From Candidatus Kapaibacterium sp. (lineage in GTDB: Bacteria; Bacteroidota; Ignavibacteria; Palsa-1295): a DNA stretch of 64,000 bases. A program made the translations under genes and the position numbers. The stretch covers positions 14,142 through 78,141 of the forward strand of contig JADGPZ010000002.1 of assembly GCA_017882165.1 (NCBI GenBank), in the 5' to 3' direction. The first letter of the stretch is position 1. Each line of letters opens with the position of its first letter. Positions 26,704 to 47,431 of the stretch are shown piece after piece. The notes beneath the pieces are model-generated. The model had not been told where the DNA came from. It made no database searches and was given only the letters and a program-made list of their open reading frames with translations.

Positions 26704-27153
26704 ATGTCATCATTTAAAGGTAGCGATACATACACGGTCGATGCGAAAGGACGCGTCAGCATTCCGTCGAAGATGCGTAAGAACATCGAGCCGGAAGCGC
26801 GGCAGACCTTTGTCGTCACGCGCGGGCTGGAGAAATGCCTGCACGCGTATCCGCTCGACGAGTGGAAGCGGCTGGAAGCGGATATTCGCTCGTCAACGCA
26901 ATCGAGCGAGAAGGATCGCTTCTTCGTCCGGATGCTGATGCAGTGGAGCGAGGAAGTTCAGCTCGACTCGCAATTCCGTTTGCTCATACCTCGCTCGCTC
27001 ATGGATTTTGCGCAGATCAAGAAAGAAGTATTTTTCATCGGTGTGCTCGACCATATCGAACTTTGGGATCCGGGGAACTTCAAGCAGTATCTCGCTTCCA
27101 AGAAGGATACGTACGAAAAAGTAGCCGAGCATCTGATCGGTGGACAACGGTAG
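26704..27153 (+). CDS. mraZ: Transcriptional regulator MraZ
   Basis: Two tandem MraZ/SpoVT-AbrB-like domains with conserved DxxGR motifs (VDAKGRVSIP, LDSQFRLLIP). Confidence 0.9.
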   Translation: MSSFKGSDTYTVDAKGRVSIPSKMRKNIEPEARQTFVVTRGLEKCLHAYPLDEWKRLEADIRSSTQSSEKDRFFVRMLMQWSEEVQLDSQFRLLIPRSLMDFAQIKKEVFFIGVLDHIELWDPGNFKQYLASKKDTYEKVAEHLIGGQR

Positions 27154-28165
27154 CGGCAGTAGTTCATTGAAAACCGATCCGAAGCGTGACGACTCGAGCG
27201 TAGTAGGCGCATATCATACGCCTGTGATGCTCGAAGAATCGCTCGAGTGTCTTGCGTTGTGCGAGGATGGCATCTATGTGGATGCTACGCTCGGCGGCGG
27301 CGGATACGCGGAAGCGATCATCGAGCGCGCAAAGTCAGCGCGCGTGTTTGGCTTCGATACCGATCCTGCGGCGCAGCGATATGCGTCGAACCGCCTTGCG
27401 CGATTTGGCGAGAGATTCGTGCTCGTGCCGGAGAACTTTGCAAGCATCGCGGATGCACTGCGCGCGCGCGGCATCACTGCCGTAGATGGCATCGTCTTCG
27501 ATCTTGGAGTCAGCAGCCATCAACTCGATACCGACTCGATCGGGCTGAGCTACCGGATCGAAGCACCGCTCGATATGCGGCTCGATCCGAGGCTGAAGAA
27601 GTCGGCAGCAGAGGTTATTGCGAATTCAGACGAGTCGCAGCTCGCCCAGATTTTTCGAGCGTATGGCGAGGAGCGCTTTGCCGGACAGATTGCAAGGAAG
27701 ATCGTGCAGGCAAGAACGGAGGCTCGAATTGAGACCACGACTCAGCTCGCGAGCGTCATCACGAATGGCCTGCGGGAGGACAAGCGGAACGAGACGCTCT
27801 CGCGCATTTTCCAGGCGCTTCGGATCGAAGTGAACGATGAGCTTGGGAATTTACGCCAAGCGTTGGAGCAGGCGCCGGAGTTACTCCGCGATGGTGGCCG
27901 GATCGTCGTCGTGAGCTACCATTCGCTCGAGGATCGGATCGCGAAAGAGTTTTTTAGGAAAGAGAGCGCTCCCCGGTTCGAGCCGGGATCGCTCGGTGGA
28001 CTGAAGGAAGCGATCGATTTAGCGCGGGCGCGGCTGCGTCTGTTGACGCGGAAGCCGGTCGCTCCCTCGCGGGAGGAGGTCGAGAGAAATCCTCGCGCGC
28101 GGAGCGCACGGCTCAGAGCGGCCGAGCGCATTGCGCGAAGCATTGCACGAATCGACGAACAGTAG
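27140..28165 (+). CDS. rsmH: 16S rRNA (cytosine1402-N4)-methyltransferase RsmH (MraW)
   Basis: HTPVMLEESL, SAM-binding DATLGGGGYAEAI, and DLGVSSHQLD motifs. Confidence 0.9.
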   Translation: MDNGSGSSSLKTDPKRDDSSVVGAYHTPVMLEESLECLALCEDGIYVDATLGGGGYAEAIIERAKSARVFGFDTDPAAQRYASNRLARFGERFVLVPENFASIADALRARGITAVDGIVFDLGVSSHQLDTDSIGLSYRIEAPLDMRLDPRLKKSAAEVIANSDESQLAQIFRAYGEERFAGQIARKIVQARTEARIETTTQLASVITNGLREDKRNETLSRIFQALRIEVNDELGNLRQALEQAPELLRDGGRIVVVSYHSLEDRIAKEFFRKESAPRFEPGSLGGLKEAIDLARARLRLLTRKPVAPSREEVERNPRARSARLRAAERIARSIARIDEQ

Positions 28166-28173
28166 GCAAGATT

Positions 28174-28608
28174 ATGGCAACAATTGCAATTTCGGCAGGC
28201 ACGATGCGGCGTAACGCCGCGGTACAAGCGCCTACTCGCGGACTCATCGGTGTCACGAGCCGCGAGCCAGTGGCATACGTCGCGCCGGTTGCGGAGCCAC
28301 TTCCCCAGAAGCACGAGCCGAGTGAGATCGAGCGCGTCGTCAAAAAGATGCCGACGCTCTATGTCATCGTCTTCTTTGGCGTCGTGGTGAGTTGCGCGGT
28401 GCTCATCATTTGGAATACATTGCAGGTGAACCGCCTGACTGCGGAACGGACAAAACTTGACGAGCAGATTGCGCAGACGGAACAGAGAATGCTTCGGATG
28501 CGGGCGAACGAGATGCAGCTTTCGGCGCCGAGCCGTGTCGCGGAGATTGCTAAGACAAAGCTTGGCATGATCGAGGCGACTGGCGATGATTTCGTCATCG
28601 TCAAATAA
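28174..28608 (+). CDS. ftsL: Cell division protein FtsL-like (single TM + coiled coil)
   Basis: Position between rsmH and ftsI. Single TM (LYVIVFFGVVVSCAVLIIW) followed by a leucine-zipper-like helix. Confidence 0.6.
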   Translation: MATIAISAGTMRRNAAVQAPTRGLIGVTSREPVAYVAPVAEPLPQKHEPSEIERVVKKMPTLYVIVFFGVVVSCAVLIIWNTLQVNRLTAERTKLDEQIAQTEQRMLRMRANEMQLSAPSRVAEIAKTKLGMIEATGDDFVIVK

Positions 28609-28625
28609 GTGGGACGAATGAACGG

Positions 28626-31010
28626 ATGAGGTTTCGTGACCAGGACGAACTGTTTGGCGAGCCCGTGCTTCGTGCAGGGGTGGCCACGCCGCGCGCCGCT
28701 CCACGCCAGAATCCTGATGTTCGCTCGCAGGAACAACCGCGTCCATCAGCTCCGGTGTTTGGAGGAGCAAATGAGGATGTCCGCGGTACCCCGGTAGTCG
28801 AAGACGAGACTCGATCTGGAGCAGAGCCGCTATTGAAGCGATTCTTCGCAGCACCCAAACCCGCTAATGCCTTGACGAGCAATGGCCGTTTGTATACGGT
28901 ACTCATTTGCTTCCTGTTCGCGCTTGTCTTAGTTGTTGGCAAGCTCTTCAAACTTCAGGTGCTCGACCATGCTGCGTTTTCGCGCGAGGCTGCGGGGCAG
29001 TATAAGATGGTGTCAGCGATTCCGGCACGCCGCGGAGTTGTCCGCGATCGTCATGGGATGATCCTCGCGACGAATGCCTACGTTGTCAAATACGCGGTCG
29101 ACCCACGCGCGATCCAGCACAAGGAGCAGCTCGCAGCGCTCTTCTCCGAGGTGTTCGGTCGTCCGGTGAAGACGTATCTCGCACTGTTCAGCGATACGTC
29201 TCGGCGGTTTGTCGTCGTGGAAAAGGAAGTACCTCTCGAAGTTGCCGCGAGGCTCGATACCGTGAAAGACCACGGGCTAATTAGTTTGCGCGATTCACGC
29301 CGAAACTACGCATTTGGCGAGCGAGCCTCGCATGTGCTCGGCTTTGCCAGCAAGGATGGACGCGGGCTGGCCGGTATCGAACTGCTCGCGAACCGCGATC
29401 TCGCTGGCCGCGCGGGTACACAGATCATGCAGAAGGATGGGCACGGTGCGCTCCGGCCCGATGTGGACTATGAGAAGACGGCTGCTTTAGACGGAGAAAA
29501 CCTCACGCTCACAATCGACGAAGCGATTCAATCGGCCACTGAAACGGCGCTCAAGGCCGGAGTTGAAAAAGCGGGCGCGGAAGCGGGCATCGCGATTGTC
29601 CTGCGTCCTTCGACGGGTGAAATCCTTGCACTTGCAAACGTGCCGGATTTCGACCCGAACAAGTTTGGCATTGCAACAAACGACATGCTTCGCAATCGCG
29701 CGATCACGGATGCCTATGAGCCGGGTTCGACGATCAAAGTTCTGACTGCTTCGGCAGCACTCGAGGACGGCGTGTGGAAGCCGGACGACAAGATCGACGC
29801 CGAGCACGGCCATTGGGCGCCGGAGAAAGGCGTACACATTACGGACACGCATCCCTACGGGATTCTCACGTTTCGGCAGGCACTCGAGAAGTCGAGTAAT
29901 ATTTCTTTCGCCAAGATCTCGGACCGACTTGATCGCCGCCGTTTCTACAAATACTTGCGCGATTTCGGAATTGGCAATTACACCGGCATCGATCTTCCGG
30001 GCGAGGTCAAAGGCGTGCTGCACACGCCGGGAAACTGGCAAGCGAACTCGAAGCGATACATGGCCTTCGGCTACGAGATGACAGCTACACCGATGCAGAT
30101 GGCCGTGGCCTATGCGACCGTGGCGAATTTCGGTCTCATGATGAAGCCCTACATCATCGCTCGGCGCGACGGCCCGAATGGACCCATCGAGACGCAGCCG
30201 CAGGAAATTCGGCGTGTCATCAGCGAGCAAACGTGCCGGACGCTGATTAGTATCATGGAAGGTGTCGTCGATTCCGGAACGGCAACGCTCGCGCAGATCA
30301 AGGGTGTGCGCATCGCAGGCAAGACAGGCACGGCACAGCAGCTCGTCGATGGCCATTGGTCGAAGGAGCATTACACTTCCAGCTTTACAGGCTTTTTCCC
30401 GGCGCGAAAACCGGAGTATTTGATCAGCGTTATCCTTCGCTCACCGCATAATGGCTATTACGGCGGCACGGTCAGCGGGCCGATCTTTCGGGAGATCGCG
30501 ATGCGCATCATGGATATGAACGGCACTCTTCCGGCTGAGGCGCGGACGCAGATGAAGCAAGAGAAGCCGGCCGTCGATGAAGGCGTCGTCGATATCGACG
30601 GTATGTTGCTCACGACGCGATCGGAGCAGAGGCAGATGCCGAACGTGCTCGGCCTTTCGGTCGAGCAGGGGCGCTCAGTGCTGGCAAGCCAGGGGTTCGT
30701 CGTCCGTGGAGCATTGGCGAAGGATGCTCAGGACGGCATCATCGACAATGTCGAAAAGTGTGGTGGGGATACTGTTCGCTTCCAAATCGTACATCCTGAC
30801 GCGAGACAAGAAGATCGCGCCGTCGCAATGCCCGCGCTAGTGGGCCTTCCGATGACGCGCGCGATCAAATACGCATCGGCAAAGGGATTGCGCGTGCATG
30901 CCAATGGCCAGGGGACTGTCACAAGACAGGAACCGAATCCAGGGGCGTTGCTCGGTATGGAGGCGACCGGCGGTAGCCCGACCGTTACGCTCTTCGGCGA
31001 AGAACAATAA
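28626..31010 (+). CDS. ftsI: Peptidoglycan D,D-transpeptidase FtsI (class B PBP) with two C-terminal PASTA-like domains
   Basis: TM anchor, SxxK (STIK), SxN (SSN) and KTGT motifs. The C-terminal ~150 aa form two PASTA-like repeats. The N-terminal ~70-aa basic/proline-rich extension is uncertain. Confidence 0.85.
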   Translation: MRFRDQDELFGEPVLRAGVATPRAAPRQNPDVRSQEQPRPSAPVFGGANEDVRGTPVVEDETRSGAEPLLKRFFAAPKPANALTSNGRLYTVLICFLFALVLVVGKLFKLQVLDHAAFSREAAGQYKMVSAIPARRGVVRDRHGMILATNAYVVKYAVDPRAIQHKEQLAALFSEVFGRPVKTYLALFSDTSRRFVVVEKEVPLEVAARLDTVKDHGLISLRDSRRNYAFGERASHVLGFASKDGRGLAGIELLANRDLAGRAGTQIMQKDGHGALRPDVDYEKTAALDGENLTLTIDEAIQSATETALKAGVEKAGAEAGIAIVLRPSTGEILALANVPDFDPNKFGIATNDMLRNRAITDAYEPGSTIKVLTASAALEDGVWKPDDKIDAEHGHWAPEKGVHITDTHPYGILTFRQALEKSSNISFAKISDRLDRRRFYKYLRDFGIGNYTGIDLPGEVKGVLHTPGNWQANSKRYMAFGYEMTATPMQMAVAYATVANFGLMMKPYIIARRDGPNGPIETQPQEIRRVISEQTCRTLISIMEGVVDSGTATLAQIKGVRIAGKTGTAQQLVDGHWSKEHYTSSFTGFFPARKPEYLISVILRSPHNGYYGGTVSGPIFREIAMRIMDMNGTLPAEARTQMKQEKPAVDEGVVDIDGMLLTTRSEQRQMPNVLGLSVEQGRSVLASQGFVVRGALAKDAQDGIIDNVEKCGGDTVRFQIVHPDARQEDRAVAMPALVGLPMTRAIKYASAKGLRVHANGQGTVTRQEPNPGALLGMEATGGSPTVTLFGEEQ

Positions 31011-31033
31011 GCACAAACGAATGTTGAATACTG

Positions 31034-31085
31034 AGGATGAGCGATCATCCTAAGGATGAGCGATCATCAGGATGAGCAATCATCC
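31034..31085. repeat. Three tandem copies of a 17-nt self-palindromic unit (A)GGATGAGCGATCATCC in the ftsI-murE intergenic region
   Basis: Seen directly at 31034-31050, 31052-31068 and 31069-31085, with one G-to-A change in the third copy. Confidence 0.7.
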
Positions 31086-31242: not shown

Positions 31243-32769
31243 ATGAAATTACGTGAGCTAACGCGGTTGGAGGAGATCGGTCTTCTTGGGGTATCGGCAC
31301 CGAGTGAAAGTGCCTCCTGGGAGGCCGATCTCTCCAGCCCGCGTTATGATTCGCGCGACGTACAGACGGGCGATACTTTTTTCGCCATTCGAGGCTTTGA
31401 AACGGATGGCCATCGCTTTATCCGGCAAGCGATTGCACGCGGCGTGCAAACAATCGTCATCGAGGACGAGAACACATTCTCGAGCCAGGATGCGGAGCAA
31501 GCGGGTGTCGCGCGCATTCTTGTCGAGAACACACGCCGCGCGCTCGCAATCGTTTCGGAGCAAGCTTTCGGGTCGCCCAGCTCGAAAATGCGTCTCATCG
31601 GAGTCACCGGGACGAACGGCAAAACGACGACGACCAACCTCATCAAGCAGTTTCTCGAACTGCGCGGCGAACGCGTCGGACTCATCGGGACGATCGGCAT
31701 TGAGATCGCTGGCGAGGAGATCGAGGCGACGCACACGACGCCAGAGTCACGGGATGTTTCCGAATTGCTTGCACGGATGGTTGCAGTCGAGGTAACCACC
31801 TGTGTGATGGAGGTCAGCTCACATGCACTGGCGCTCGATCGTGTGGCAGGACTTGATTTTGACATTGCCGTCTTCACTAATCTGACGCAGGACCATCTCG
31901 ACTTCCATCACACGATGGAAGAGTATTTCGCGACCAAACAAAAGTTTTTCAACGGACTCAAAGATACGGCCATTGCGATCACGAATGCGGATGACCCGTA
32001 TGGCTATCGAATGGTCGAACGAACGCGTGCCAATGCACACACTTTTTCAATCTCCGAAAACGGGATAATGGTCGGCGGAGATCTCATTGCAAGTGATCTC
32101 GATCTTTCGATCGAGGGCAGCAGCTTCGTTGTGGAAAAAAGATATTCCGACGAGAAGGCGCGTGTTAGCTCCCAGCTTGTCGGGGCGTTCAACGTCCAAA
32201 ATTTGATGGCTGCGATCGGTGCGCTTTACTTTGGAGTGGAGGGCTATCCACTCGAACGGCTGGCAATGCTTGCGCGCGAACTCCGGCCCGTGCGGGGAAG
32301 ATTCGAGACGATTCCGCTCGCGAGCGGCGCGTCGGCGATTATTGACTACGCGCATACCCCGGACGCGCTCTGCAAGGTGCTCGAGACAATCCGCCAGGTG
32401 GCGCCATCCGCAAAGATCACCACGGTTTTTGGTTGCGGAGGCGACCGCGACAGGATGAAACGCCCTCAGATGGGCCAAATCGCAAGTCTATTGTCAGATG
32501 CGGTGATCGTTACGTCCGACAATCCGCGTTCGGAATCGCCGGAAGCCATTATCAGTGAAGTTGTGGCCGGAATTCCGGCAAATGCGCTGCAAAAAGTGGC
32601 AATTAAACCAGATCGGAGCAGGGCTATCGCAATGGCGCTAAACCAATCGGAGCCCGGAGATGTCGTGTTAATAGCTGGCAAAGGGCATGAGCGAGTGCAG
32701 ATTATCGGCCACGAACGTCATCATTTTGACGATCGCGAAGAAGTGCTCCGGTGGGGTGGAATCACCTGA
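31243..32769 (+). CDS. murE: UDP-N-acetylmuramoyl-L-alanyl-D-glutamate--2,6-diaminopimelate ligase
   Basis: Mur ligase Walker-like GVTGTNGKTTTT. The DNPR motif (SDNPRSE) indicates meso-DAP specificity. Confidence 0.9.
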   Translation: MKLRELTRLEEIGLLGVSAPSESASWEADLSSPRYDSRDVQTGDTFFAIRGFETDGHRFIRQAIARGVQTIVIEDENTFSSQDAEQAGVARILVENTRRALAIVSEQAFGSPSSKMRLIGVTGTNGKTTTTNLIKQFLELRGERVGLIGTIGIEIAGEEIEATHTTPESRDVSELLARMVAVEVTTCVMEVSSHALALDRVAGLDFDIAVFTNLTQDHLDFHHTMEEYFATKQKFFNGLKDTAIAITNADDPYGYRMVERTRANAHTFSISENGIMVGGDLIASDLDLSIEGSSFVVEKRYSDEKARVSSQLVGAFNVQNLMAAIGALYFGVEGYPLERLAMLARELRPVRGRFETIPLASGASAIIDYAHTPDALCKVLETIRQVAPSAKITTVFGCGGDRDRMKRPQMGQIASLLSDAVIVTSDNPRSESPEAIISEVVAGIPANALQKVAIKPDRSRAIAMALNQSEPGDVVLIAGKGHERVQIIGHERHHFDDREEVLRWGGIT

Positions 32770-32902: not shown

Positions 32903-34324
32903 GTGAATCTCACTGTTCAGGACCTGCTCTCGATCCCGTTCCTCCACGAGGACCGGCTGAGCAGGCTCGATCCGAACCGGACATTCCGCGATGTCTCGAC
33001 CGATTCGCGGACTGTGCACCGGGACGATCTGTTCGTCGCGCTCAAGGGACCGCACTTCGACGGCCACAAATTTTTGGATACCGCACGAAATGAAGGCGCA
33101 GTAGCAGCCATCGTCTCCGACCATTGGTATCGTGCGCAGAAAGGAAAGCAGCTTTCACTTCCGTTACTCGTTGTCAAGGACACACTCGATGCGCTGGGCG
33201 CGCTGGCGAATTGTTACCGGAAGAAATTCAAGATTCCAATCTTAGCCATCGCAGGCTCGAATGGAAAGACGACAACGAAGGAGTTGGTTGCCCACCTGCT
33301 TTCAGATTCGTACGATGTGCTGAAGACGGAGGCGAATTTCAACAACCAGATCGGCGTGCCGCGAATGCTATTCCAGTTGCGCGATGGGCATGACATGGCC
33401 GTGCTCGAGATCGGCACCAACCATCCGGGCGAAATCGCATGGCTTTGCAATGTGACAGAGCCAACACACGTGCTGGTGACGAATATCGGCCGCGAGCATC
33501 TTGAGTTTTTCAAAGACTTGAAGGGCGTTGCGGAAGAAGAGAAAATAGCATTTGCGTATGCGCAAGCGCATAGCGGATTTGCATTCGTCAATCTGGACGA
33601 TCGGTATTTGCGCCAAGCCGCTAAGCAGTTCGGAGATCGCTGCACGACCTTCGGAACGAACGCTCAGGAGAGCCCACATCACGTTAATGTGACCAAGATT
33701 GCCAACTCGAAGGATGGACAAGCCGAGTTACGCGTCGGATTCGATGGCAAGTCCTTCAAAGTGCGGACGCAATTGATCGCAGACTACGCACCGAACATGG
33801 TTGCGGCAGCCGTCGCGGTTGCATTCCATTTCAAGGTTCGGCGAGCCGAGATCAAGTCTCAACTCGAGATCTTCCGGCCCCATACGAAGCGCATGGAGGT
33901 TATGCACACGCCGCACGGTGTGACGATTCTGAACGATGCCTACAACGCTAATCCGGACTCCATGGAAGCCGCAGTTCGCACGCTCGCGACGTTCCCAGCC
34001 GAAGGGCGGAGATATGCGGTTCTCGGAGATATGTTCGAGCTTGGCGATCGATCGAGCAAGGAGCATCGAGCTTTGGGACGATGGCTTGCGACGTGCCATG
34101 TTGACCAAGTCTTCTTTACCGGCAAAGATATGGAGCTGGCCTGGAAGGCATTCGGCTCCGCCAGCGCAAACCAGAAGAGTTCGGCAACCGAGTCGTACTT
34201 CAAGACCAAGAAGCAGCTCGCGACGACTCTTCGAGAGCTTCTGAAGCCTGGCGATGCGGTGCTCATCAAGGGGTCGCGCGGCATGAAGATGGAGGAGCTG
34301 ATCGAAATGCTTCAGCGAGCCTAA
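32903..34324 (+). CDS. murF: UDP-N-acetylmuramoyl-tripeptide--D-alanyl-D-alanine ligase; GTG start
   Basis: IAIAGSNGKTTTKEL P-loop and Mur ligase middle and C-terminal domains. Confidence 0.9.
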   Translation: MNLTVQDLLSIPFLHEDRLSRLDPNRTFRDVSTDSRTVHRDDLFVALKGPHFDGHKFLDTARNEGAVAAIVSDHWYRAQKGKQLSLPLLVVKDTLDALGALANCYRKKFKIPILAIAGSNGKTTTKELVAHLLSDSYDVLKTEANFNNQIGVPRMLFQLRDGHDMAVLEIGTNHPGEIAWLCNVTEPTHVLVTNIGREHLEFFKDLKGVAEEEKIAFAYAQAHSGFAFVNLDDRYLRQAAKQFGDRCTTFGTNAQESPHHVNVTKIANSKDGQAELRVGFDGKSFKVRTQLIADYAPNMVAAAVAVAFHFKVRRAEIKSQLEIFRPHTKRMEVMHTPHGVTILNDAYNANPDSMEAAVRTLATFPAEGRRYAVLGDMFELGDRSSKEHRALGRWLATCHVDQVFFTGKDMELAWKAFGSASANQKSSATESYFKTKKQLATTLRELLKPGDAVLIKGSRGMKMEELIEMLQRA

Positions 34325-34339
34325 CGATCCTTCACCCCA

Positions 34340-35483: not shown

Positions 35484-35557
35484 GGGTGTAGGGTATAGGG
35501 TGTAGGGTATGAATACCCTGCATCCTCTACCCTATACCCTAAACGCTATACCCTATG
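35484..35557. repeat. Nested palindrome built from TAGGGTAT / ATACCCT units spanning the mraY-murD junction and the murD start codon
   Basis: gggtgTAGGGTATAGGGTGTAGGGTATgaATACCCTgcatcctctACCCTATACCCTaaacgctATACCCTATG. The murD ATG (35555) lies inside the 3' arm. Confidence 0.55.
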
Positions 35558-36907: not shown

Positions 36908-36917
36908 AATTTCCAAT

Positions 36918-37325
36918 ATGGATCCCGTTATCGGCATTCTAACATCGATTGTTATCCTCGCGATTATTTACCTCTGCGTATGGCTAATTCTGAGAATGCT
37001 CATTCGAAGAAGAATCATCAGCGTGCTAATTTCTTCCCTCATTGCACTAATCGTATTTGCAGTGCTCATTACATGGTCCTATTCAAAATGGTATGAACAC
37101 CATATTAAGAGCCTCTCATACGTTGATCCTATCGCTGCGAAGTTCTTTCATGAGCATCCGCTTCGAAGGGATAGCCTGCTCGGAATGACGAAACCGCAAG
37201 TGTTTACCACACTGGGCCTGCCGGAAGATACTGCCGGAGATCGAATCGTTTACACAATCGAACCATACTACCGGACGATTGTCCTATTTTTTAAGAATGG
37301 AACGGTAATCGAAGTTGAGAAATGA
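36918..37325 (+). CDS. Small membrane-anchored protein with BamE/SmpA-OmlA-like C-terminal domain, inserted between murD and ftsW
   Basis: Two N-terminal TM helices. C-terminal GMTKPQVFTTLGLPEDT...RIVYTIEP...VLFFKNGTVIEVEK resembles the BamE fold pattern. GC content is visibly lower than the flanks. Its stop overlaps the ftsW start. Confidence 0.45.
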   Translation: MDPVIGILTSIVILAIIYLCVWLILRMLIRRRIISVLISSLIALIVFAVLITWSYSKWYEHHIKSLSYVDPIAAKFFHEHPLRRDSLLGMTKPQVFTTLGLPEDTAGDRIVYTIEPYYRTIVLFFKNGTVIEVEK

Positions 37326-39606: not shown

Positions 39607-40124
39607 CCGAGGAATCAACACACGTCTATCGAGCACGCCTCGATTTCCTGTATCAGTCTATCGCGATGTACGCGGTGGCGCTGGTGCTATATCTCATTGT
39701 TCGGTCGTCCGTTGCATCCGAGGCGTTTCCTTCGCTATGGCAGGACCCACTGTTGTTCCTGCTCTCCGCAATCACGTTGATTTCCGTTTGTGCCTTGGCT
39801 TATAATCTATTTATGGGCCGCCAAATTGAGATCGCACGGGATGCAATCCGGTTTAAGAGCCGCGCGCGCCAGCGCTCTGTGGCGCGATCTGAGGTAGCCT
39901 TTCTGCAATTCGGACCGCGGTTTCGCCAGCCTCGCGGACGTATCCGTGTCGTACGCATTCGGTTGAAAGGCGAGCGGCGCCCAATCCGAATTCGTCTGGC
40001 GAACTTCGATCGCCGCAGACAGTTGCTTGCCGACTTGCGCCAGTGGGCGGGACCGCTGGGCAGAGAAGCGCGTCCGGCGTCAGGCGCGCCACGTAAGATA
40101 GCGCTCGGGAAGGAGTCTGGCTGA
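39603..40124 (+). CDS. Small 2-TM membrane protein with basic, possibly bacterial-PH-like, C-terminal domain, between murG and murC
   Basis: The ATG overlaps the murG stop (ATGA). Two TM helices (IAMYAVALVLYLIV, LLFLLSAITLISVCALAY) and an Arg-rich C-terminal ~90 aa. Part of the frame overlaps the murG 3' end, so the call is tentative. Confidence 0.35.
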   Translation: MTEESTHVYRARLDFLYQSIAMYAVALVLYLIVRSSVASEAFPSLWQDPLLFLLSAITLISVCALAYNLFMGRQIEIARDAIRFKSRARQRSVARSEVAFLQFGPRFRQPRGRIRVVRIRLKGERRPIRIRLANFDRRRQLLADLRQWAGPLGREARPASGAPRKIALGKESG

Positions 40125-40135
40125 GGCCAGCGACT

Positions 40136-41560
40136 ATGCGTCACGTTCATTTTATTGGCATCGGCGGAGCCGGTACGAGCGGGCTTGCGGAGATATTGCT
40201 GCTCCGGGGCATCGAAGTCTCCGGAAGCGATCTGGTTGCGAATGCAAAGACGGACGAACTCGCATTGCTTGGCGCGACCATCCATGAAGGACATGCCGGG
40301 CAGAATGTGAACGGGGCGGATATCGTCGTTTATTCTTCCGCCGTGCATCGCGACAATCCTGAATACGCGGAAGCCGTGCAGCGCGGTGTTCGAATCCTTC
40401 GCCGTGCGGACTTCATGGCCGAGCTACTGGCCGATCACAGTGTCATTGCCGTTGCTGGCACGCACGGAAAGACCACGGTGACCAGTATGATCGCCTCGAT
40501 CCTCATCGAGGCAAAGCTCGATCCGCTCGTGCTTGTTGGCGCCAGCGTTGCGGAACTGGATGGGAAGAATTCGCGCGCCGGGACCGGACGCATTGCCGTT
40601 GTTGAAGCGGACGAGTACGATCGCAGCTTCCTCGCGCTCCGGCCATTCATCGCCGTCATGACCTCTCTTGAAGAAGAGCACCTCGATATATACAAAGACT
40701 TGGACGATCTGAAAGACGCGTTCGTCGAGTTCGCGAACCAGGGTCCATCATCGCCGCAAACCGGATACGCGGTTGTTTGCATCGATGAGCCAGCCTTGCG
40801 CGCCATCACACCACGGCTTCAGAAGCGGATCGTGAGTTATGGCCTTCGGTCGATGGAAGCAAAGTATCGTGCGACGAACGTTTTGCTGAGTGCCCAACGG
40901 ATGCGTGCAACGATCATGCGAGGCAGCGATGCAGTTGGAGAGTTGGAATTACGCGTACCCGGGGAGCACAATATCTACAATGCGCTTGCCGCGCTGACCG
41001 TCGGAGAGATCTTATCGATTCCTTTCGAGACCTCGGTGCGGGCGCTGAAACGCTTTACGGGTGCCGAGCGGCGGTTTGAACGTATCGGCGAGGCTGCCGG
41101 TGTGGTTGTGATCGATGATTACGCGCATCATCCCACCGAAGTCCGAGAGACGCTCCTGACAGCCCGAAAATGCTATCCGGGCCGGCGCATCGTCGCGTGT
41201 TTCCAGCCGCACACATTTACGCGGACACGTGATTTTGCAACTGGTTTCGGCCAGGTATTTGCGGAACTTGCCGATGTGCTCGTGCTGCTGGACATATATC
41301 CGGCGCGCGAACAGCCGATTGAAGGTGTCACCAGTAAGCTGATCGCCGAGGCGGTGCTGGAGCTGAAGGAAATCCATGAGGTTGCAACCGTCGAAGAGTT
41401 GCCGGATCGGGTCGTCGCGATCGCGCAGGCCGGCGATGTCATCCTGACCATCGGCGCCGGGACGATTACGAACGCAGCCCGACCGATATTCGAACTCATG
41501 AAGGATAGGGAGCAAACTGGTGTTACCGTGCCGGCCTCAGAATTTGCCATCGCACAATGA
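40136..41560 (+). CDS. murC: UDP-N-acetylmuramate--L-alanine ligase
   Basis: N-terminal HFIGIGGAGTSGLAEIL, P-loop AVAGTHGKTTVTSM, and Mur ligase domains. Confidence 0.9.
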   Translation: MRHVHFIGIGGAGTSGLAEILLLRGIEVSGSDLVANAKTDELALLGATIHEGHAGQNVNGADIVVYSSAVHRDNPEYAEAVQRGVRILRRADFMAELLADHSVIAVAGTHGKTTVTSMIASILIEAKLDPLVLVGASVAELDGKNSRAGTGRIAVVEADEYDRSFLALRPFIAVMTSLEEEHLDIYKDLDDLKDAFVEFANQGPSSPQTGYAVVCIDEPALRAITPRLQKRIVSYGLRSMEAKYRATNVLLSAQRMRATIMRGSDAVGELELRVPGEHNIYNALAALTVGEILSIPFETSVRALKRFTGAERRFERIGEAAGVVVIDDYAHHPTEVRETLLTARKCYPGRRIVACFQPHTFTRTRDFATGFGQVFAELADVLVLLDIYPAREQPIEGVTSKLIAEAVLELKEIHEVATVEELPDRVVAIAQAGDVILTIGAGTITNAARPIFELMKDREQTGVTVPASEFAIAQ

Positions 41561-43026
41561 CCCAAGAAACTCCCATACACGAGATAGAAGAAACGCCATC
41601 CCCCTTGGAGATGGTGACCGATGAGAGTACCATCCCTTCGGATGGCGCTGCTTCGGATGTCGCTTCAGAAGAAACGGAAGCTCCACCCACCGATGGTGCG
41701 GTCGCTGCCAATGGCACGGCCCGCCGCGAATACCGCCCGCAAAGGGAGCGTGAGCCACGGGAGCGTGAGCCGCGCGCGCGAAAGGCACGCAAACCAGCCC
41801 CAGCAATCTTCGAGCGCTTTGTCGTCATCCGCTGGTCCGGACGCCGCGAGCCGGTCGATGATATGTTCTGGGCCGAGGCGACCAAGGAAGGCGAGTGGAT
41901 GGTCCTGACGGAGTTCGAGCAGATCCGTTCTCGCAAGGATATTTTGGCACGGCTACTGGAATTGCCGCCTGCGTTGGTCGCGCTTGATTTCCCGCTCAGC
42001 TATCCCGCTGACTTTTTCGAATTTTTGAAGGGCGAAGGGATCACCGACTGGAGATCGCTCGCAAAGCGAGTGCGGGAGGATCTCAAAAAGAACGTTGATG
42101 ACGGCGTGCGGCTTTGGATCGAACGGATGGGCGCCTATCGTGAGTCGCGGTTGGAAGACGAAGCACTCTGGCCCGATCGCCGGGACGACCGCTACAACGA
42201 CCGCCGAGGCGACCGGTATAACGATCGAGGGAATGACCGGTACAACGATCGCCGCTCGCCACTACCTCGTGAGCCTTTAGCACCCTACGAGCGCGGATCG
42301 CTCGCCGAGCGCTTTCGCCGCACGGACCATGCCCTGCGCCGCGTGGCCGACCGGCATCTTGTCAGTCCGGTTCAGATTGGTTACAACCGTCTGACCAATC
42401 GTTATGAGTTTACCGATGCGAACTCGCAGGGCCGCGCGGCGCTGCTTGGCATGTCGATGCTCGATCAAGTGCTCGATGTTCGTCAAGATGCGGCAGTCTG
42501 GCCGATGATGGCGCCGAAGCCGCTGACAATCGTTGAGGTGTTGCCATGGGTCTTCACCGCTGGTGACCGGTTGCAACCCGATGTGCTTCGGAAGCAAATG
42601 GCCACACTGGAAGATCGCGGCTGGGATATCCCGAGTCATGCGATCGACCAGGCCGCTCGAAATCCCGAGGCGCAAAGTGCCCTCCGGTGTTTGCTCGGCA
42701 TGATTAAGACCGAGAGCCGAGAGGATCGGCAACGGCGCCCGATCCGCGATTACTTGCCTGCATTCTATGATGATCCGCAGGTCAAACTCGAAGGGTGGTT
42801 CTATAGCGTTGGCTATCGGTCGATGACTGAAGAATCCAAATCGGAGCACCCACATAAGGAGGAAGCGAAAGACTCGCATCCGAAAGAGAAGCAAGAGACC
42901 AAGAAGAATATAGCGCTGCCAACGCCTCTGGAGAGTGTCCAGACCGAAAGTCCGGAAGCAGCAGTCCTTGCCGAAGTGACCGAACCCGCTGTTTCTGCGG
43001 AAGCCGAGCAAGAGCCAAGCCTTTAG
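41557..43026 (+). CDS. Hypothetical 489-aa protein inserted between murC and ftsQ: acidic/RE-rich termini, three DRYND repeats, possible RNase-H-like (DUF429-like) core
   Basis: The ATG overlaps the murC stop (ATGA). It contains a 21-nt tandem DNA repeat x3 (GACCGCTACAACGACCGCCGA...) encoding DRYNDRRGDRYNDRGNDRYNDRR. Core motifs VVIRWSGRRE, LVALDFPLSYP, RTDHALRRV...SPV and TIVEVLPWVF loosely resemble DUF429-type proteins. The fold assignment is speculative. Confidence 0.5.
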   Translation: MTQETPIHEIEETPSPLEMVTDESTIPSDGAASDVASEETEAPPTDGAVAANGTARREYRPQREREPREREPRARKARKPAPAIFERFVVIRWSGRREPVDDMFWAEATKEGEWMVLTEFEQIRSRKDILARLLELPPALVALDFPLSYPADFFEFLKGEGITDWRSLAKRVREDLKKNVDDGVRLWIERMGAYRESRLEDEALWPDRRDDRYNDRRGDRYNDRGNDRYNDRRSPLPREPLAPYERGSLAERFRRTDHALRRVADRHLVSPVQIGYNRLTNRYEFTDANSQGRAALLGMSMLDQVLDVRQDAAVWPMMAPKPLTIVEVLPWVFTAGDRLQPDVLRKQMATLEDRGWDIPSHAIDQAARNPEAQSALRCLLGMIKTESREDRQRRPIRDYLPAFYDDPQVKLEGWFYSVGYRSMTEESKSEHPHKEEAKDSHPKEKQETKKNIALPTPLESVQTESPEAAVLAEVTEPAVSAEAEQEPSL

Positions 43027-43175
43027 ACGAGAGCAGTGGAGCTTCCGCTGCCCGCAAGCCCTATTTGCATTGCCTCTCAACGAGGCAAGCCTTTAACTCA
43101 CGTATTTCATTTTTCAGCGAACGCTGTTTTCGTGCTGCGCGCAGGCAACTGTGCGTGTTTGCGAAAGTTTTTGCT

Positions 43176-44399
43176 ATGCGATTTACGATCAATCCGCCGA
43201 ATGGCGGCCGCAAAGAACTGACGAATCTTCGGGCGCGGGAGCCGGACGATCTCGTCCGGCAGCGACTGGGCGAGCGACAGAGCGAGCACCTTGGCGCGTC
43301 CGCACTGCGGACGGATGTAGAGGCATATCTCGATCGGGCGGCCGCGAGCGACGCTCCCGAAAGCGAGAGCATGCCGAGCGATACGTTCGAACAGTTCCTT
43401 GCGGAGGATACTCATGATTTATCTGGAACGAACGGTGACGAAGGGACTTCCTGGAGGCATTCTCGCTGGGCACCGGCGCTATTTCTTCTGGCAGTTGGTG
43501 CGCTAGCTTCACTGTGGTACTTCGCGGCGCATTTCGATCGCTCGCTCGCGCTTGAGAGCGTAAAAGTGGAAGGTGCCGATCTTGTGGCCGAGCGGGAGAT
43601 CGTCCGGCTTGCCGCAATCGACATGAAGCAAGCATTCTACTCGATCGACCTCCGGCGCATTGAGTCGAGGGTCGCGCAGCACTCTTTAGTCAAACATGTG
43701 CATGTTCGCCGAGAACTGAGTCCGGCAAGCATCGTCATCTCCATCGAAGAACGGCGGCCAGTGGCGATGCTAAAGTCAGATTCGTCGGGTGAGACTTATC
43801 TTATCGATCGGGATGGACACCTGCTTCGACCCAAGCTGCTTGCGGGTCTCAGCGATCCCGCGCGTTTGCTCGCGGTGCCACTCCTGAGCGGTGTGAGCGA
43901 GCGGGACACGGTCGGCTTCCAGGCGATGGCGCGACTCGTCGCGACGATCGGCGCGATTGACTCCGGGGCGTTGGGCAAAGCGATCGGCGAATTGCGCCGG
44001 ACGCCCAACGGATCATACGTCATCTATACTGCCGAGACACAGACGCCGATCTTCATCGGATCGCCGTTCGACGCACCATTTCAGACCGCGCTTGAAGAAG
44101 AGCGTGGCACAACCACGCGCGTGACAAACGATCACTTCTTCATGACACAGATCGCGCTGCTTGCCAAAGTCTGGAGATCCAAGCTTGAGAAGTCGCTCCG
44201 GGCCGGCGATGCGCTCTATGTCGATGCGCGGTTTCGAGGGCAGATCATCCTGAAGCGCCGCAACCAAGCCATGCTGCATGGTGCGCCGCCAGCATCTCAG
44301 AAATTTTCTGGACTCAATGGACTTGATGGACGATGTGGACCGTCCACCGCGTCCATGGTGTCCGTTCCGTCCATCGAGTCCATTCAGTCCACATCATAA
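43176..44399 (+). CDS. ftsQ: Cell division protein FtsQ/DivIB-like (POTRA domain)
   Basis: Position before ftsA. Single TM (WAPALFLLAVGALASLWYF) followed by a POTRA-like LESVKVEGADLVAEREIVRLAAID...IESRVAQHSLVKHVHVRRELSPASIVISIEERRP. Start chosen at ATG 43176. The cytoplasmic tail is unusually long. Confidence 0.6.
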   Translation: MRFTINPPNGGRKELTNLRAREPDDLVRQRLGERQSEHLGASALRTDVEAYLDRAAASDAPESESMPSDTFEQFLAEDTHDLSGTNGDEGTSWRHSRWAPALFLLAVGALASLWYFAAHFDRSLALESVKVEGADLVAEREIVRLAAIDMKQAFYSIDLRRIESRVAQHSLVKHVHVRRELSPASIVISIEERRPVAMLKSDSSGETYLIDRDGHLLRPKLLAGLSDPARLLAVPLLSGVSERDTVGFQAMARLVATIGAIDSGALGKAIGELRRTPNGSYVIYTAETQTPIFIGSPFDAPFQTALEEERGTTTRVTNDHFFMTQIALLAKVWRSKLEKSLRAGDALYVDARFRGQIILKRRNQAMLHGAPPASQKFSGLNGLDGRCGPSTASMVSVPSIESIQSTS

Positions 44400-44405
44400 C
44401 TTGTT

Positions 44406-45848
44406 ATGCAACGAACGCGAATGAGCGATCCCCGGATGAGCGATCGTCCGACCTATTCAGAACCAGCGTATAGCACGAGCAGCTATTCGAGTGGGGCCCC
44501 GATGGGTGGCTCACCCATGGGTGGCTCTCCCATGATGGGCGTCCCAGCGCAACACGAGCCGGCGAAGATCATCGTCGGGCTTGATGTGGGCACGACGAAG
44601 GTCTGTGCGATCGTCGCGGCGATCTCGCTGCGCGAGCCGCACACGATGACCGTGCTCGGCGTGGGGCATGCCCCGGCCGATGGACTTTCGCGCGGCGTCG
44701 TGACGAACATCGAGAAGACGGTGCGCTCGATCGAGCGCGCCATTGCGGAGGCCGAGGCTCAGAGCGGTGTGAAGATCCGCGAGGTCGTTGTTGGCATTGC
44801 GGGCGATCACATTCAGTCGTTCCAGTCGCGCGGCGTTGTCACGATCTCGAATGCCGAGCGGACGATCTCGCAGGATGATGTCGATCGGCTGATCGAGGAT
44901 ACGAAGAAGGTGCATCTGCCCATGGACCGCCGAATTTTGCACGTAATCCCGCAAGAGTTTATCGTCGATGGACAGGACGGGATTTACGAACCGATCGGTA
45001 TGTCCGGCGTGCGGCTGGAGGCGAGCGTCCACATCATCAACGGCCTCGTCACCGCCGTGCAAAACATCTACAACTGTGTGGAGCGCGCTGGACTCCGCGT
45101 CCGCGATATCGTTCTTGAACCGCTCGCGTCGAGCTATGCCGTGCTTGACGATGAGGAAAAGGAGGTTGGCGTGGCGCTCGTCGATATTGGCGGTGGCACC
45201 ACGGACATTGCGGTATTCGAAGAACGGACCATCCGCCACACGGCTGTTGTCGGTATTGCCGGACAAAAAGTCACGGATGATATTCGCAAGGGACTCGGCA
45301 TTCTCGGCGATCAGGCCGAACGTCTCAAACGTGAGTATGGCTGCGCCGTTGTCTCGCACATCCTGCGTGACGAAGTGATCCAATTGCCAGGACTCGCCGG
45401 CCGCAAGCCTCGTGAAATTCAGAAGTCCGTAATCGCGCGCGTGATTCAGCCGCGAATGGAGGAGATTCTCGAATTCGCGCTCTCCGAGATCAAACGATCC
45501 GGGTACGCGCGGCATCTCTCGGCGGGTGTCGTGCTCACGGGCGGTGGCTCGATGACGAATGGCACGCGCGAACTGGCCGAAGAAGTCTTCCAGATGCCGG
45601 TCAAGATCGGAATGCCGATGGGCTTCGGCGCGGGACTCGTCAAAGAGGTCGAGTCGCCGGTCTTCTCGACAGCGGTCGGACTCGTGCTCTATGCCTTCCG
45701 GCATCACGAGAAGAGCGACCTTATGTCATACGTGGAGACGTTGGCTGCGGAAGAACCCGTTGTCGTTAGCGAAGAGACGCATCTGGAAGATGACGAGCAA
45801 AAGGGCTCGATCTTCTCGAAGATGAAAGAATGGTTTGAACAACTCTAA
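44406..45848 (+). CDS. ftsA: Cell division protein FtsA (actin-like ATPase) with ~50-aa low-complexity N-terminal extension
   Basis: IIVGLDVGTTKVCAIV phosphate-1 motif, DIGGGTTDIAVF phosphate-2, and the overall FtsA pattern. The extension carries a 15-nt tandem repeat encoding PMGGSPMGGSPMMG. Confidence 0.85.
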   Translation: MQRTRMSDPRMSDRPTYSEPAYSTSSYSSGAPMGGSPMGGSPMMGVPAQHEPAKIIVGLDVGTTKVCAIVAAISLREPHTMTVLGVGHAPADGLSRGVVTNIEKTVRSIERAIAEAEAQSGVKIREVVVGIAGDHIQSFQSRGVVTISNAERTISQDDVDRLIEDTKKVHLPMDRRILHVIPQEFIVDGQDGIYEPIGMSGVRLEASVHIINGLVTAVQNIYNCVERAGLRVRDIVLEPLASSYAVLDDEEKEVGVALVDIGGGTTDIAVFEERTIRHTAVVGIAGQKVTDDIRKGLGILGDQAERLKREYGCAVVSHILRDEVIQLPGLAGRKPREIQKSVIARVIQPRMEEILEFALSEIKRSGYARHLSAGVVLTGGGSMTNGTRELAEEVFQMPVKIGMPMGFGAGLVKEVESPVFSTAVGLVLYAFRHHEKSDLMSYVETLAAEEPVVVSEETHLEDDEQKGSIFSKMKEWFEQL

Positions 45849-45943
45849 CAGTGCTGAGTGCTCAGTGTTGAGTGCTAAGTATGGCATTCGGCAGAGACAC
45901 TCAGCGTCCTTTGAAACACAGCACTCAGCACTTAGCACTTAGA
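45849..45943. repeat. Palindromic repeat element (AGTGCTGAGTGCT ... AGCACTCAGCACTTAGCACT) filling the ftsA-ftsZ intergenic space
   Basis: Left arm cagtgctgagtgctcagtgttgagtgctaagt and right arm acacagcactcagcacttagcacttag. A 12-bp perfect core stem GTGCTGAGTGCT/AGCACTCAGCAC. It ends 4 nt before the ftsZ ATG. Confidence 0.55.
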
Positions 45944-45946
45944 ACT

Positions 45947-47431
45947 ATGATAGAACTCGATACCAAACAAGAATACGGCGCGAAAATCCGGGTGGTCGGC
46001 GTGGGCGGCGGTGGCTCCAATGCTGTCAACGCAATGATCAACAAAGGCCTGGAGGGCGTGGAATTCTGCGTGCTCAACACCGACATGCAGGCGCTCGAAA
46101 AGAGCACGGCCTCGATCAAGCTGCAAATCGGCAAGAACCTGACGCGGGGACTTGGCGCTGGCGCCGATCCGGAAGTCGGGCGCAAAGCCGTCGAAGAAGA
46201 CCGCGAAGAGATCATGCACATGATGGCGGGGAGCGATATGATCTTTGTCACGGCCGGCATGGGTGGCGGCACCGGCACGGGTGGCGTCCCCGTCGTGGCG
46301 TCGATTGCGAAGTCGATTGGCGCGCTCGTAGTCGGAATCGTCACGAAGCCGTTCGCCTTCGAAGGCAAGCGCCGATCGCGGCAGGCTGAAGATGGCATCG
46401 AGGAGCTTCGCCGCAATGTCGATACGCTCATCGTGATCCCTAACCAGAAGTTGCTCGGGTTGGTCGAGAATTCAACCTCGTTTCTCGATGGCTTCTCGCT
46501 CGCAAATCAGGTGCTTTACAATGCCACGCGGGGCATCAGCGAACTGATTATTCGTCACGGATACATCAACGTTGATTTCGCTGACGTGCGGACCGTCATG
46601 CGCGAGATGGGCGATGCCATCATGGGCTCGGGTGTTGGCCGTGGCGAGCACCGCGCCTCCGTCGCGGCGGAGCACGCGATCTCCTCGCCGCTGCTCGAAG
46701 GGGTATCCATTCAGGGCGCGCAAGGAGTGCTCGTCAACATCACTGGTGGGCGCTCAATGTCGCTGATCGAAGTGAGCGAGGCGACGCAGATCATCCACGA
46801 CGCGGCCGGCGACGATGCGAATATCATCTTCGGTGCCGTGCTCGATGAGACGATGGAAGAAGAGATCATGGTGACGGTGATCGCGACCGGATTTAACTCG
46901 CGGCCAAAGTACAATGGCCTGAGCGTGGGCGGCGGCGGCGAGCTGCGTCCAACCCGTGTGACGGAACGAGTAGAGGAAGAAGTACCGCGCCTGCGAACGC
47001 AGCGCATCAATCAGGCATCGACCGAAGAGGTCGTTGCGACCTCGCGGCCGCCATTGCGAGAGACGGCGATGGCCGACACACAGGCGATGCCGCTGCCGCG
47101 CGTCGAACGGATGTTTGTACCGCGTGGCACGCTCCGTGAAAAAGAACGCGGGACTTCATTCGAGACGAACGAGGTAGAAACGCCGGAGCGTCCGCTAACG
47201 ACCGGAGTCTCGCGGCTGACGCCGCGTACCGATACGCGGCACGTTCCATCAGGTCCACGCGATTTGAAGGACTACGACCAACCAGCGTATCTGCGACGTG
47301 GCGTGCAGCTTCCGCCCATCGGCGAAGCAGAGGAACCGCAGGCCGTCGCGCAAGAAGCGGCAAAGGTGGAAGAACCGCGTAGCCGCGACCACGATGACAA
47401 GCCAGCGTTCCTGAAGCGGATTATGGATTAA
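45947..47431 (+). CDS. ftsZ: Cell division GTPase FtsZ
   Basis: GVGGGGSNAVN tubulin signature, T7 loop NVDFADV, long disordered C-terminal linker, and conserved C-terminal peptide (DKPAFLKR). Confidence 0.9.
   Translation: MIELDTKQEYGAKIRVVGVGGGGSNAVNAMINKGLEGVEFCVLNTDMQALEKSTASIKLQIGKNLTRGLGAGADPEVGRKAVEEDREEIMHMMAGSDMIFVTAGMGGGTGTGGVPVVASIAKSIGALVVGIVTKPFAFEGKRRSRQAEDGIEELRRNVDTLIVIPNQKLLGLVENSTSFLDGFSLANQVLYNATRGISELIIRHGYINVDFADVRTVMREMGDAIMGSGVGRGEHRASVAAEHAISSPLLEGVSIQGAQGVLVNITGGRSMSLIEVSEATQIIHDAAGDDANIIFGAVLDETMEEEIMVTVIATGFNSRPKYNGLSVGGGGELRPTRVTERVEEEVPRLRTQRINQASTEEVVATSRPPLRETAMADTQAMPLPRVERMFVPRGTLREKERGTSFETNEVETPERPLTTGVSRLTPRTDTRHVPSGPRDLKDYDQPAYLRRGVQLPPIGEAEEPQAVAQEAAKVEEPRSRDHDDKPAFLKRIMD

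Follow-up and report, generated by a model that had tools for sequence, protein, structure and literature searches.

Two undescribed gene families at fixed positions in the division and cell wall cluster of a Kapaibacteria-type bacterium

The cluster of division and cell-wall (dcw) genes is among the most conserved gene arrangements of bacteria, and nearly all of its members are core factors of the envelope or of division. The locus studied here raises the question of whether additional genes found inside such a cluster belong to it. We analysed a window of 64,000 nucleotides from Candidatus Kapaibacterium sp. (assembly GCA_017882165.1, contig JADGPZ010000002.1, positions 14,142 to 78,141), in which positions 26704-47431 of the plus strand hold an unbroken series of co-oriented open reading frames (ORFs). 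This series comprises all 14 canonical dcw genes and three extra ORFs that we call ins1, ins2 and ins3. An initial annotation had described the three as translationally coupled candidates for lineage-specific, undescribed accessory proteins of the divisome or cell wall, found in place of murB and ddl. We conclude that this is a dcw operon inherited vertically in a Kapaibacteria-type bacterium (Bacteroidota, Fibrobacterota-Chlorobiota-Bacteroidota (FCB) group). The explanation that best accounts for the locus as a whole, to which we assign a probability of roughly 0.55, is that ins2 and ins3 are fixed members of this operon with an adaptor-type role and that ins1 is cargo.

Conservation of ins2 and ins3 in related loci

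The two genes that carry the argument, and the part of ins3 that was used for structure prediction, are located as follows.

39603-40124, + strand: ins2, extra ORF of 173 aa between murG and murC
41557-43026, + strand: ins3, extra ORF of 489 aa directly 3' of murC
41797-42885, + strand: core of ins3, used for structure prediction with AlphaFold2 (AF2)

Synteny was assessed by tblastn of the window proteins against all fetched loci, which had been retrieved either through ins3 (L007-L036) or through ins2 (L003-L005). Since the retrieval routes are separate, each set gives independent evidence for the gene that was not used to fetch it. The homologues of ins2 and ins3 and the 30 species-level loci from GTDB representative genomes all derive from metagenome-assembled genomes (MAGs), which carry the labels Candidatus Kapaibacterium or Kapabacteria or, more generally, Ignavibacteriota/Bacteroidota; the NCBI taxonomy places Kapaibacterium within Bacteroidota in the FCB group. 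Locus L003, the Logan contig SRR30681715, represents a near-identical strain. The dcw cluster of L032 (CAYOJJ010000001.1), in which ins2, ins3 and murB are present, is typical of Kapaibacteria clade A; the record of this MAG, titled 'uncultured Alphaproteobacteria bacterium', is probably mislabelled.

The arrangement murG-ins2-murC is kept in 30 of the 30 loci that span this interval, and the neighbourhood of murC and ins3 likewise in all 30 loci that span murC-ftsQ. Identity to the window ranges from 35 to 91% across these loci, and both genes are kept in place down to 35%. Their composition is native to the operon, with a GC content of 58-59% and a GC content at third codon positions (GC3) of 62-64%. 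The ratios of nonsynonymous to synonymous substitution rates (dN/dS, Nei-Gojobori) against L003 and L005, respectively, are 0.12 and 0.10 for ins2, 0.15 and 0.10 for ins3, and 0.13 and 0.09 for murG. Thus, ins2 and ins3 are genuine genes that experience normal purifying selection, in the same range as murG, and the possibility that they are chance ORFs is ruled out by their homologues and by these ratios.

None of the 65 homologues of ins3 and 67 homologues of ins2 bears a functional name; those of ins2, at 46-100% identity, are all called 'hypothetical'. Searches of Pfam, NCBIfam and PHROGs gave no significant match for ins1, ins2 or ins3, and Pfam applied to the ins2 and ins3 homologues revealed no domain beyond a single sub-threshold match to bPH_10. 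The literature searched on Kapabacteria, cell division and the dcw cluster contains no description of ins2 or ins3 as members of the cluster. In position, composition and selection both behave as lineage-specific accessory genes of the dcw cluster, and we consider it likely that they are conserved, lineage-specific members of the operon with a role related to the envelope or to division. The proposal of lineage-specific, undescribed accessory proteins is therefore borne out for ins2 and ins3, with their selection, their lack of a known family and their fixed position. It is not supported for ins1: close relatives clearly conserve the other two and do not conserve this gene. Lineage-specific additions to the dcw cluster are already known to occur, and neither the PH-like nor the RNase H-like fold is rare. 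The novelty here lies in two undescribed families with a fixed place in the dcw cluster throughout an uncultured class, of which one is a putative nuclease-derived pseudoenzyme, and in a hotspot for cargo within an operon that is commonly considered very stable.

Predicted folds and possible roles of ins2 and ins3

An alignment of 37 homologues supports the ATG at 39603 as the start of ins2 and displays, after two hydrophobic segments that are conserved, a likewise conserved stretch of ~80 residues that is very rich in arginine. The AF2 model (predicted local distance difference test (pLDDT) 80.5) comprises a short N-terminal strand, helices at residues 15-37 and 49-70, six or seven strands, and a C-terminal helix (138-152) that caps a beta-sandwich with the pleckstrin homology (PH) fold. 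The protein thus consists of two transmembrane helices and an arginine-rich PH-like domain at ~74-155, and both hallmarks of the bacterial PH (bPH) membrane proteins, namely the PH-fold sandwich with its capping helix and the two N-terminal transmembrane helices, are present. The ins2 protein of the window has no match to the Pfam bPH models even at E ≤ 10, and the orthologue P0089 scored 24.7 bits against PF23494 (bPH_10), below the gathering score of 27. Because the PH-like domain is strongly basic and the loop between the helices acidic, the positive-inside rule suggests that the domain faces the cytoplasm.

ins3 is composed of a disordered N-terminal tail (residues 1 to ~85) that is first acidic and then basic, a conserved core (~86-420) and a disordered C-terminal tail. 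The core of ~330 residues has 43-44 invariant positions (alignments A1 and A2), the tails are variable and of low complexity, and the orthologues of clade A have no N-terminal tail. Within the otherwise unalignable disorder of the C-terminal tail, a weakly conserved motif, ENPIVxEP or xPxPxE, occurs in both clades (A1 columns ~570-590) and could be a docking peptide. The core was modelled with a pLDDT of 88.7 and a predicted template modelling score (pTM) of 0.85, save for a disordered RD-rich loop at core residues ~125-165, and adopts an RNase H-like fold (RuvC/DUF429-type) with a family-specific insertion of ~100 residues at ~165-290, in which this loop lies. Its structural neighbours are TEFM (top; PDB 5ola), which we take to be a RuvC-fold pseudonuclease, and Cce1, RuvC, terminases, Tex, Spt6 and YqgF. 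Foldseek against the PDB gave no significant match for ins3, and a profile search against the PDB sequences returned nothing.

In an exhaustive search with an HMMER profile, 1.84 billion cluster representatives yielded 19 orthologue-grade matches to ins3 (E ≤ 1e-30) and, beyond a sharp drop, ~275 remote relatives, most of which are stand-alone and measure 255-300 aa. These relatives carry the motifs DWSG (strand 1), LDFxFSxP (strand 4), VEIYPR, DAFDA (C-terminal helix) and EGW, and NCBIfam NF011066 (MobB/unknown-domain fusion) matches them with its 'unknown domain'; one carries a fusion to HD_4. ins3 itself stays below every threshold of PF04250 and of the rest of Pfam and NCBIfam. DUF429 belongs to the RNase H-like clade D together with RuvC, Cce1, terminase and YqgF according to Majorek et al., and the acidic residues of strands 1 and 4 form its predicted active site (PMC3985635). 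The literature searched contains no demonstration of nuclease activity of DUF429 proteins. A census of individual alignment columns compared 86 stand-alone relatives with 63 dcw-linked orthologues (ins3 numbering).

Position 92: Asp in 86/86 relatives; Asp in 0/63 orthologues (S/T/L/R/G/A)
Position 371: Asp in 76/86 relatives; Asp in 16/63 orthologues
Position 374: Asp in 75/86 relatives; Asp in 5/63 orthologues, otherwise variable
Position 144: Asp in 86/86 relatives; D in 49, E in 10 and N in 4 orthologues
Position 327: Glu in 85/86 relatives; Glu in 63/63 orthologues
Position 412: Glu in 83/86 relatives; Glu in 63/63 orthologues

Of the features of a DUF429-type protein, ins3 therefore shows the fold and the strand-4 acid and lacks the strand-1 acid and the acidic pair of the DAFDA motif. 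At the same time the orthologues have invariant elements of their own, many of them on the insertion: R97-E98-P99, KKNxDDG, ERFRR, NRLTxRYEF and E352-D353. Judging by the fold and the shared residues, ins3 is a descendant of a DUF429-like family of predicted nucleases. The loss of ancestral catalytic aspartates combined with the gain of new invariant surfaces is the signature of a pseudoenzyme, and ins3 is probably a pseudo-nuclease.

Taken together, these features allow us to outline how the two proteins might act. ins2 would present, on the cytoplasmic side of the inner membrane and beside MurG and MraY, a basic PH-like module for binding. ins3 would be made in step with MurC by means of the ATGA overlap of the two genes and would serve as a non-catalytic adaptor or scaffold. 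Jointly they could tether or organise the steps of MurC, (MurB) and MurG, or link them to FtsQ/FtsA/FtsZ. This specific adaptor mechanism is offered as a tentative proposal. We are equally guarded about the wider notion that ins2, as a PH-like receptor, and ins3, as a pseudoenzyme, might be essential, class-wide components of envelope growth or division that couple the Mur pathway to the membrane or to FtsA/FtsZ.

Several observations weigh against an adaptor role of ins2 and ins3. The sole functional link of the two to Mur and Fts proteins is gene order, and the cytoplasmic orientation of ins2 is deduced from charge only. The link of ins3 to DUF429 is weak and consists of one relative that matched PF04250 below threshold (E 0.0088, 16 bits vs 23). 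Furthermore, ins3 keeps the invariant residues E98, D182, E196, E284, E327, E352, D353 and E412 along with many arginines, and these retained or new acidic residues may be compatible with a rewired active site or with binding of nucleic acids. Finally, the loci were retrieved through ins2 and ins3 themselves, so that genomes with neither gene would have escaped, and the conservation holds for the Kapaibacteria-type loci sampled and not necessarily for the class as a whole.

The rewired site leads to the alternative that fares best, namely that ins3 is a working enzyme or binding factor for nucleic acids, with a site built from E98, D144, E327, E352/D353 and E412, and that ins2 is its membrane anchor. 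Such a protein might act on DNA, relating the status of the chromosome or of junctions to septation in a manner reminiscent of nucleoid occlusion, or on RNA, in the transcription of the long dcw operon, as Tex, Spt6 and TEFM do with their YqgF/RuvC-like domains. All structural neighbours of ins3 are indeed nucleic-acid proteins, and its relatives are predicted nucleases (PMC3985635). Its 11 invariant arginines, the R/K-rich N-terminal tail and the RD-rich loop would suit the binding of a polyanion, and D144, E327 and E412 are kept while new invariant acidic residues have been added. However, the strand-1 Asp is found in 0/63 orthologues and the Asp positions of the helix drift among K, R, Q, H, S and E. 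A strand-1 Asp that is gone and helix positions that are free to vary point to an active site that was lost rather than conserved. In addition, the clade-A orthologues do without the basic N-terminal tail, and the neighbourhood contains no genes of DNA or RNA metabolism. We therefore regard a nucleic-acid function as doubtful.

According to a second alternative, ins2 and ins3 are passengers whose function, be it housekeeping or tied to a niche, has nothing to do with division or the cell wall and that landed in the ancestor of the Kapaibacteria and have been kept since because disrupting a packed, overlapping operon is costly. The operon does host unrelated cargo between murD and ftsW (glyoxalase, PLD-like, IS200 transposase), the ins3-ftsQ interval also accommodates cargo (in L002 a gene with an Asp_protease domain, in three more loci intervals of comparable length), and neither ins2 nor ins3 contains a domain with a known cell-wall function. 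Yet the cargo of such slots is low in GC and turns over, whereas ins2 and ins3 were never lost or moved in 30/30 loci, even at 35% identity; their composition is native and the constraint on them equals that on murG. The sharp drop after only 19 orthologue-grade representatives of ins3, whose positions were not individually checked, also speaks against passengers. This alternative is unlikely in our view, and we retain the adaptor-type role of ins2 and ins3 as the preferred interpretation.

Cluster organisation, murB and ddl, and the murD-ftsW slot

The remaining genes of the cluster, all of which support the canonical order given by the initial annotation, are listed below. Each of the 14 canonical genes has Pfam or NCBIfam matches above threshold and lies on the plus strand, and the three extra ORFs occur exactly where they had been placed.

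26704-27153, + strand: mraZ (Pfam/NCBIfam)
27140-28165, + strand: rsmH, MraW methylase (Pfam/NCBIfam)
28174-28608, + strand: ftsL (TIGR02209, 52 bits vs a cutoff of 42.45)
28626-31010, + strand: ftsI (penicillin-binding protein (PBP) dimer, transpeptidase and C-terminal PASTA domains)
31243-32769, + strand: murE (Pfam/NCBIfam)
32903-34324, + strand: murF (Pfam/NCBIfam)
34340-35467, + strand: mraY (Pfam/NCBIfam)
35555-36907, + strand: murD (Pfam/NCBIfam)
36908-37321, no strand: variable slot between murD and ftsW, filled by ins1 in the window
36918-37325, + strand: ins1, extra ORF of 135 aa
37322-38497, + strand: ftsW (Pfam/NCBIfam)
38494-39606, + strand: murG (Pfam/NCBIfam)
40136-41560, + strand: murC, 474 aa (Pfam/NCBIfam)
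43065-44399, + strand: ftsQ (POTRA)
44406-45848, + strand: ftsA (Pfam/NCBIfam)
45872-47431, + strand: ftsZ (Pfam/NCBIfam)

The complete order is thus mraZ-rsmH-ftsL-ftsI-murE-murF-mraY-murD-[ins1]-ftsW-murG-[ins2]-murC-[ins3]-ftsQ-ftsA-ftsZ. Overlaps of 4 bp (ATGA) join the stop of ins1 to the start of ftsW, the stop of murG to the start of ins2 and the stop of murC to the start of ins3. On the opposite sides there are gaps: 10 bp between murD and ins1, 11 bp between ins2 and murC, and 38 bp or more between ins3 and ftsQ. The translational coupling attributed to the three genes accordingly holds on one side of each and not on both. A sigma-70-based scan, which is probably unsuited to Bacteroidota, found 7 promoter-like sites within the cluster (shuffled: 8.3 ± 2.9) and 26 terminator-like sites (shuffled: 18.1 ± 4.5), both numbers near expectation. 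None of either kind coincided with the junctions of ins1, ins2 or ins3. An Rfam scan detected no RNA element inside the cluster.

Two further observations concern the canonical genes. FtsI is long (794 aa) and ends in a PASTA domain at residues 733-774 (37 bits) that is also faintly visible in L003 and L005; this domain is better known from Gram-positive proteins of the PBP2x/PknB type. Immediately 3' of the cluster, at 47432-48991 on the plus strand and with the very next base after the ftsZ stop, begins an ORF for a multi-pass membrane protein of 519 aa that has no match in Pfam or NCBIfam and is kept 3' of ftsZ in L005 (72%) and L007 (61%).

The absence of murB and ddl, a further claim of the initial annotation, was confirmed. 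Domain scans of all ORFs of at least 180 aa in the 64-kb window found no MurB or D-Ala-D-Ala-ligase domain and no FAD_binding_4/MurB_C, and tblastn of the MurB of a related Kapaibacteria MAG against the window gave no match. MurC (474 aa) is of normal length and contains only the three Mur-ligase domains, which excludes a fusion. That murB or ddl is concealed within a neighbouring gene, or fused to one, is ruled out by the large-ORF domain scans together with the fold of ins3, which is RNase H-like, and in 12 related loci murB exists as a separate gene. According to a published reconstruction of how the dcw cluster evolved, the FBC/FCB superphylum is marked by clusters that have lost murB and ddlB (PMC8871954). 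Among the 30 related loci ddl is absent from the cluster throughout, and the order murC-ins3-murB-ftsQ is found in 12, which form one clade, whereas the clade of the window has no murB within the cluster. That both genes are absent from the cluster is therefore ordinary for the Kapaibacteria-type lineage. The idea that the extra ORFs stand in place of murB and ddl has to be abandoned: only ins3 sits at the murC-ftsQ junction, and as it adjoins murB in 12 of 30 loci, it is not a substitute for murB. By this reading of the gene orders, ins3 is older in the cluster than the departure of murB in the clade of the window.

ins1 differs from the other two genes. It encodes two predicted transmembrane helices flanking an RRR loop and a small C-terminal domain with the motif G-x-T...LG-x-P-x-D...F-x-NG-x-V; the position of the RRR loop between the helices suggests that this domain is periplasmic. 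Among 5.8 billion proteins it matched only itself, metagenome and viral contigs gave no match, and no other locus contains it at the level of BLAST. A hidden Markov model of ins1 run over all ORFs of the fetched loci found a sole relative, which occupies the same slot in L015 (4483-4881, 132 aa), has the same architecture and is 25% identical (E 7e-11; C-terminal domain 31%, E 5e-9). Given this relative, ins1 is probably a real, fast-evolving gene for a small membrane protein, and a chance ORF is considered unlikely. A profile of the two sequences placed BamE chains third and fourth among its PDB matches (E 1.4 and 1.9, not significant). The C-terminal motif resembles the BamE type (BamE/SmpA_OmlA), and ins1 has no match to the Pfam family.

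The GC content of ins1 is 43.6% and its GC3 47%, as against 53-60% and 61-71% in the neighbours. In L003, whose MurE, FtsA and FtsZ are 100% identical to those of the window, murD and ftsW are separated by 46 bp with a small hairpin-like repeat and no ins1. No meaningful direct or inverted repeats flank ins1. Over 30.2-36.2 kb and again over 44.2-47.4 kb, the DNA of the window agrees with that of L003 at ~100%, but over 36.2-44.2 kb, from the 3' end of murD to ftsQ, identity is only ~90%, with ins1 near the left edge. Either homologous replacement by DNA of a related lineage or an assembly chimeric between strains would account for this 8-kb block. Of the 28 loci in which the murD-ftsW slot was measured, 19 have one shorter than 160 bp; where occupied it is low in GC (0.40-0.49) and holds a variety of genes.

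murD-ftsW slot in L005, L012, L015 and L018: gene for an LprI-type lysozyme inhibitor
murD-ftsW slot in L010: glyoxalase/bleomycin-resistance (Ble)-like gene
murD-ftsW slot in L014: phospholipase D (PLD)-like gene (PLDc_2)
murD-ftsW slot in L019: IS200-type Y1 transposase
murD-ftsW slot in L007: secreted protein of 250 aa

L035 is also among the loci with a variable, low-GC murD-ftsW junction. LprI (PF07007) genes share the slot of ins1 in four of these loci, and ins1 itself has no LprI match. The slot is an accessory-cargo hotspot in this lineage. With its absence from L003, its GC3 of 47% and a single remote relative, ins1 lacks the marks of an accessory gene of the cluster and is strain-specific cargo in a variable slot rather than a conserved component of the divisome. 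Most likely it is a small, periplasm-facing membrane protein that would have been acquired with a recombined block of DNA and would be dispensable for division. That ins1 is instead a lineage-specific divisome or cell-wall accessory co-expressed with ftsW, as its strand, its ATGA overlap with the ftsW start, its plausible membrane topology with a small extracytoplasmic domain, the relative in the same slot of L015 and the envelope-related LprI of other lineages might suggest, is very improbable, since it is missing from L003 despite flanking genes that are 97-100% identical and from 28/30 other lineages, has no homologue in the protein, metagenome and viral collections, deviates in GC3 and lies near the edge of a block whose ~90% identity between ~100% flanks suggests import by recombination.

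Other intervals of the cluster also vary. The ins3-ftsQ interval of L002 (11449-12744) contains an extra gene of ~1.3 kb with retropepsin-like Asp_protease_2/gag-asp_proteas domains, and gaps of similar size occur in L009, L011 and L013. The mraY-murD interval measures ~0.9-1.3 kb in the clade-A loci L021, L022, L023 and L027 compared to 87 bp in the window and is possibly a second variable slot.

Elsewhere in the window, a full-length transfer-messenger RNA (tmRNA; Rfam, 90 bits) lies at 5705-6228 on the minus strand. At 524 nt it exceeds the 374 positions of the model, and it was not reported by ARAGORN. It overlaps the 5' end of the ORF 3873-5864 (DUF6029), so that the true start of this ORF is probably further downstream. 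Three large ORFs have no Pfam family at E ≤ 1e-4 (16300-19101, - strand, 933 aa; 51138-53444, + strand, 768 aa; 6375-8081, + strand, 568 aa). A further ORF of 269 aa (21974-22783, + strand) matches the C-terminal domain of the exosporium collagen-like protein BclA with 39.3 bits (cutoff 38), a domain that is unexpected in a MAG of Bacteroidota.

Implications and comparison with known systems

Bacteroidota often lack regulators such as Min, Noc, SlmA and ZipA. ins2 and ins3 are strong and testable candidates for new accessory factors of division or of peptidoglycan precursor synthesis in this phylum. If the adaptor interpretation holds, an RNase H-fold pseudoenzyme would take part in envelope growth or division, a role without a known counterpart in model bacteria. 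ins3 is also a clean example of an enzyme fold that loses its catalytic residues while gaining new invariant surfaces, which is the way in which pseudoenzyme scaffolds come about. The dcw operon, held to be very stable, can host a slot for fast-turnover cargo between murD and ftsW. Moreover, the missing murB/ddl and ins1 can both be set aside as false leads.

The cluster does not conform to the long form of Escherichia coli and Bacillus, in which murB and ddl lie between murC and ftsQ. With the FCB-type cluster of Bacteroidota, Chlorobiota and Fibrobacterota (PMC8871954) it shares the 14 core genes, their canonical order and the absence of murB and ddlB. It differs from this type in that murF lies inside the cluster, that one clade of Kapaibacteria keeps murB there, and that the slot between murD and ftsW is variable. 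To the described FCB-type clusters it adds the class-wide ins2 and ins3 (murG-ins2-murC-ins3), which have no counterpart in the literature searched.

The nearest likenesses of the two proteins lie outside the dcw cluster. ins2 resembles the bacterial PH membrane proteins (PF23494, bPH_10, YqeB-like; PF03703, bPH_2, YdbS/YdbT type), having likewise two N-terminal transmembrane helices and a PH-fold domain. The similarity of ins3 to TEFM (PDB 5ola) and to the YqgF-like domains of Tex and Spt6 amounts to only 4-13% identity over ~150 aligned residues; these proteins are eukaryotic or related to transcription, and nothing ties ins3 to transcription. With DUF429 (PF04250; COG2410/COG4328/COG4923) ins3 shares the RNase H-like fold and the neighbours RuvC, Cce1, terminase and YqgF, and D144, E327 and E412 are common to ins3 and the DUF429/NF011066-type relatives. 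The HD_4 fusion in one relative is in line with the co-occurrence of DUF429 with RelA/SpoT (PMC3985635). In contrast to DUF429-type proteins, ins3 has neither the strand-1 Asp nor the two helix Asp, and it is distinguished by its insertion of ~100 aa, its disordered tails and its fixed position in the dcw cluster.

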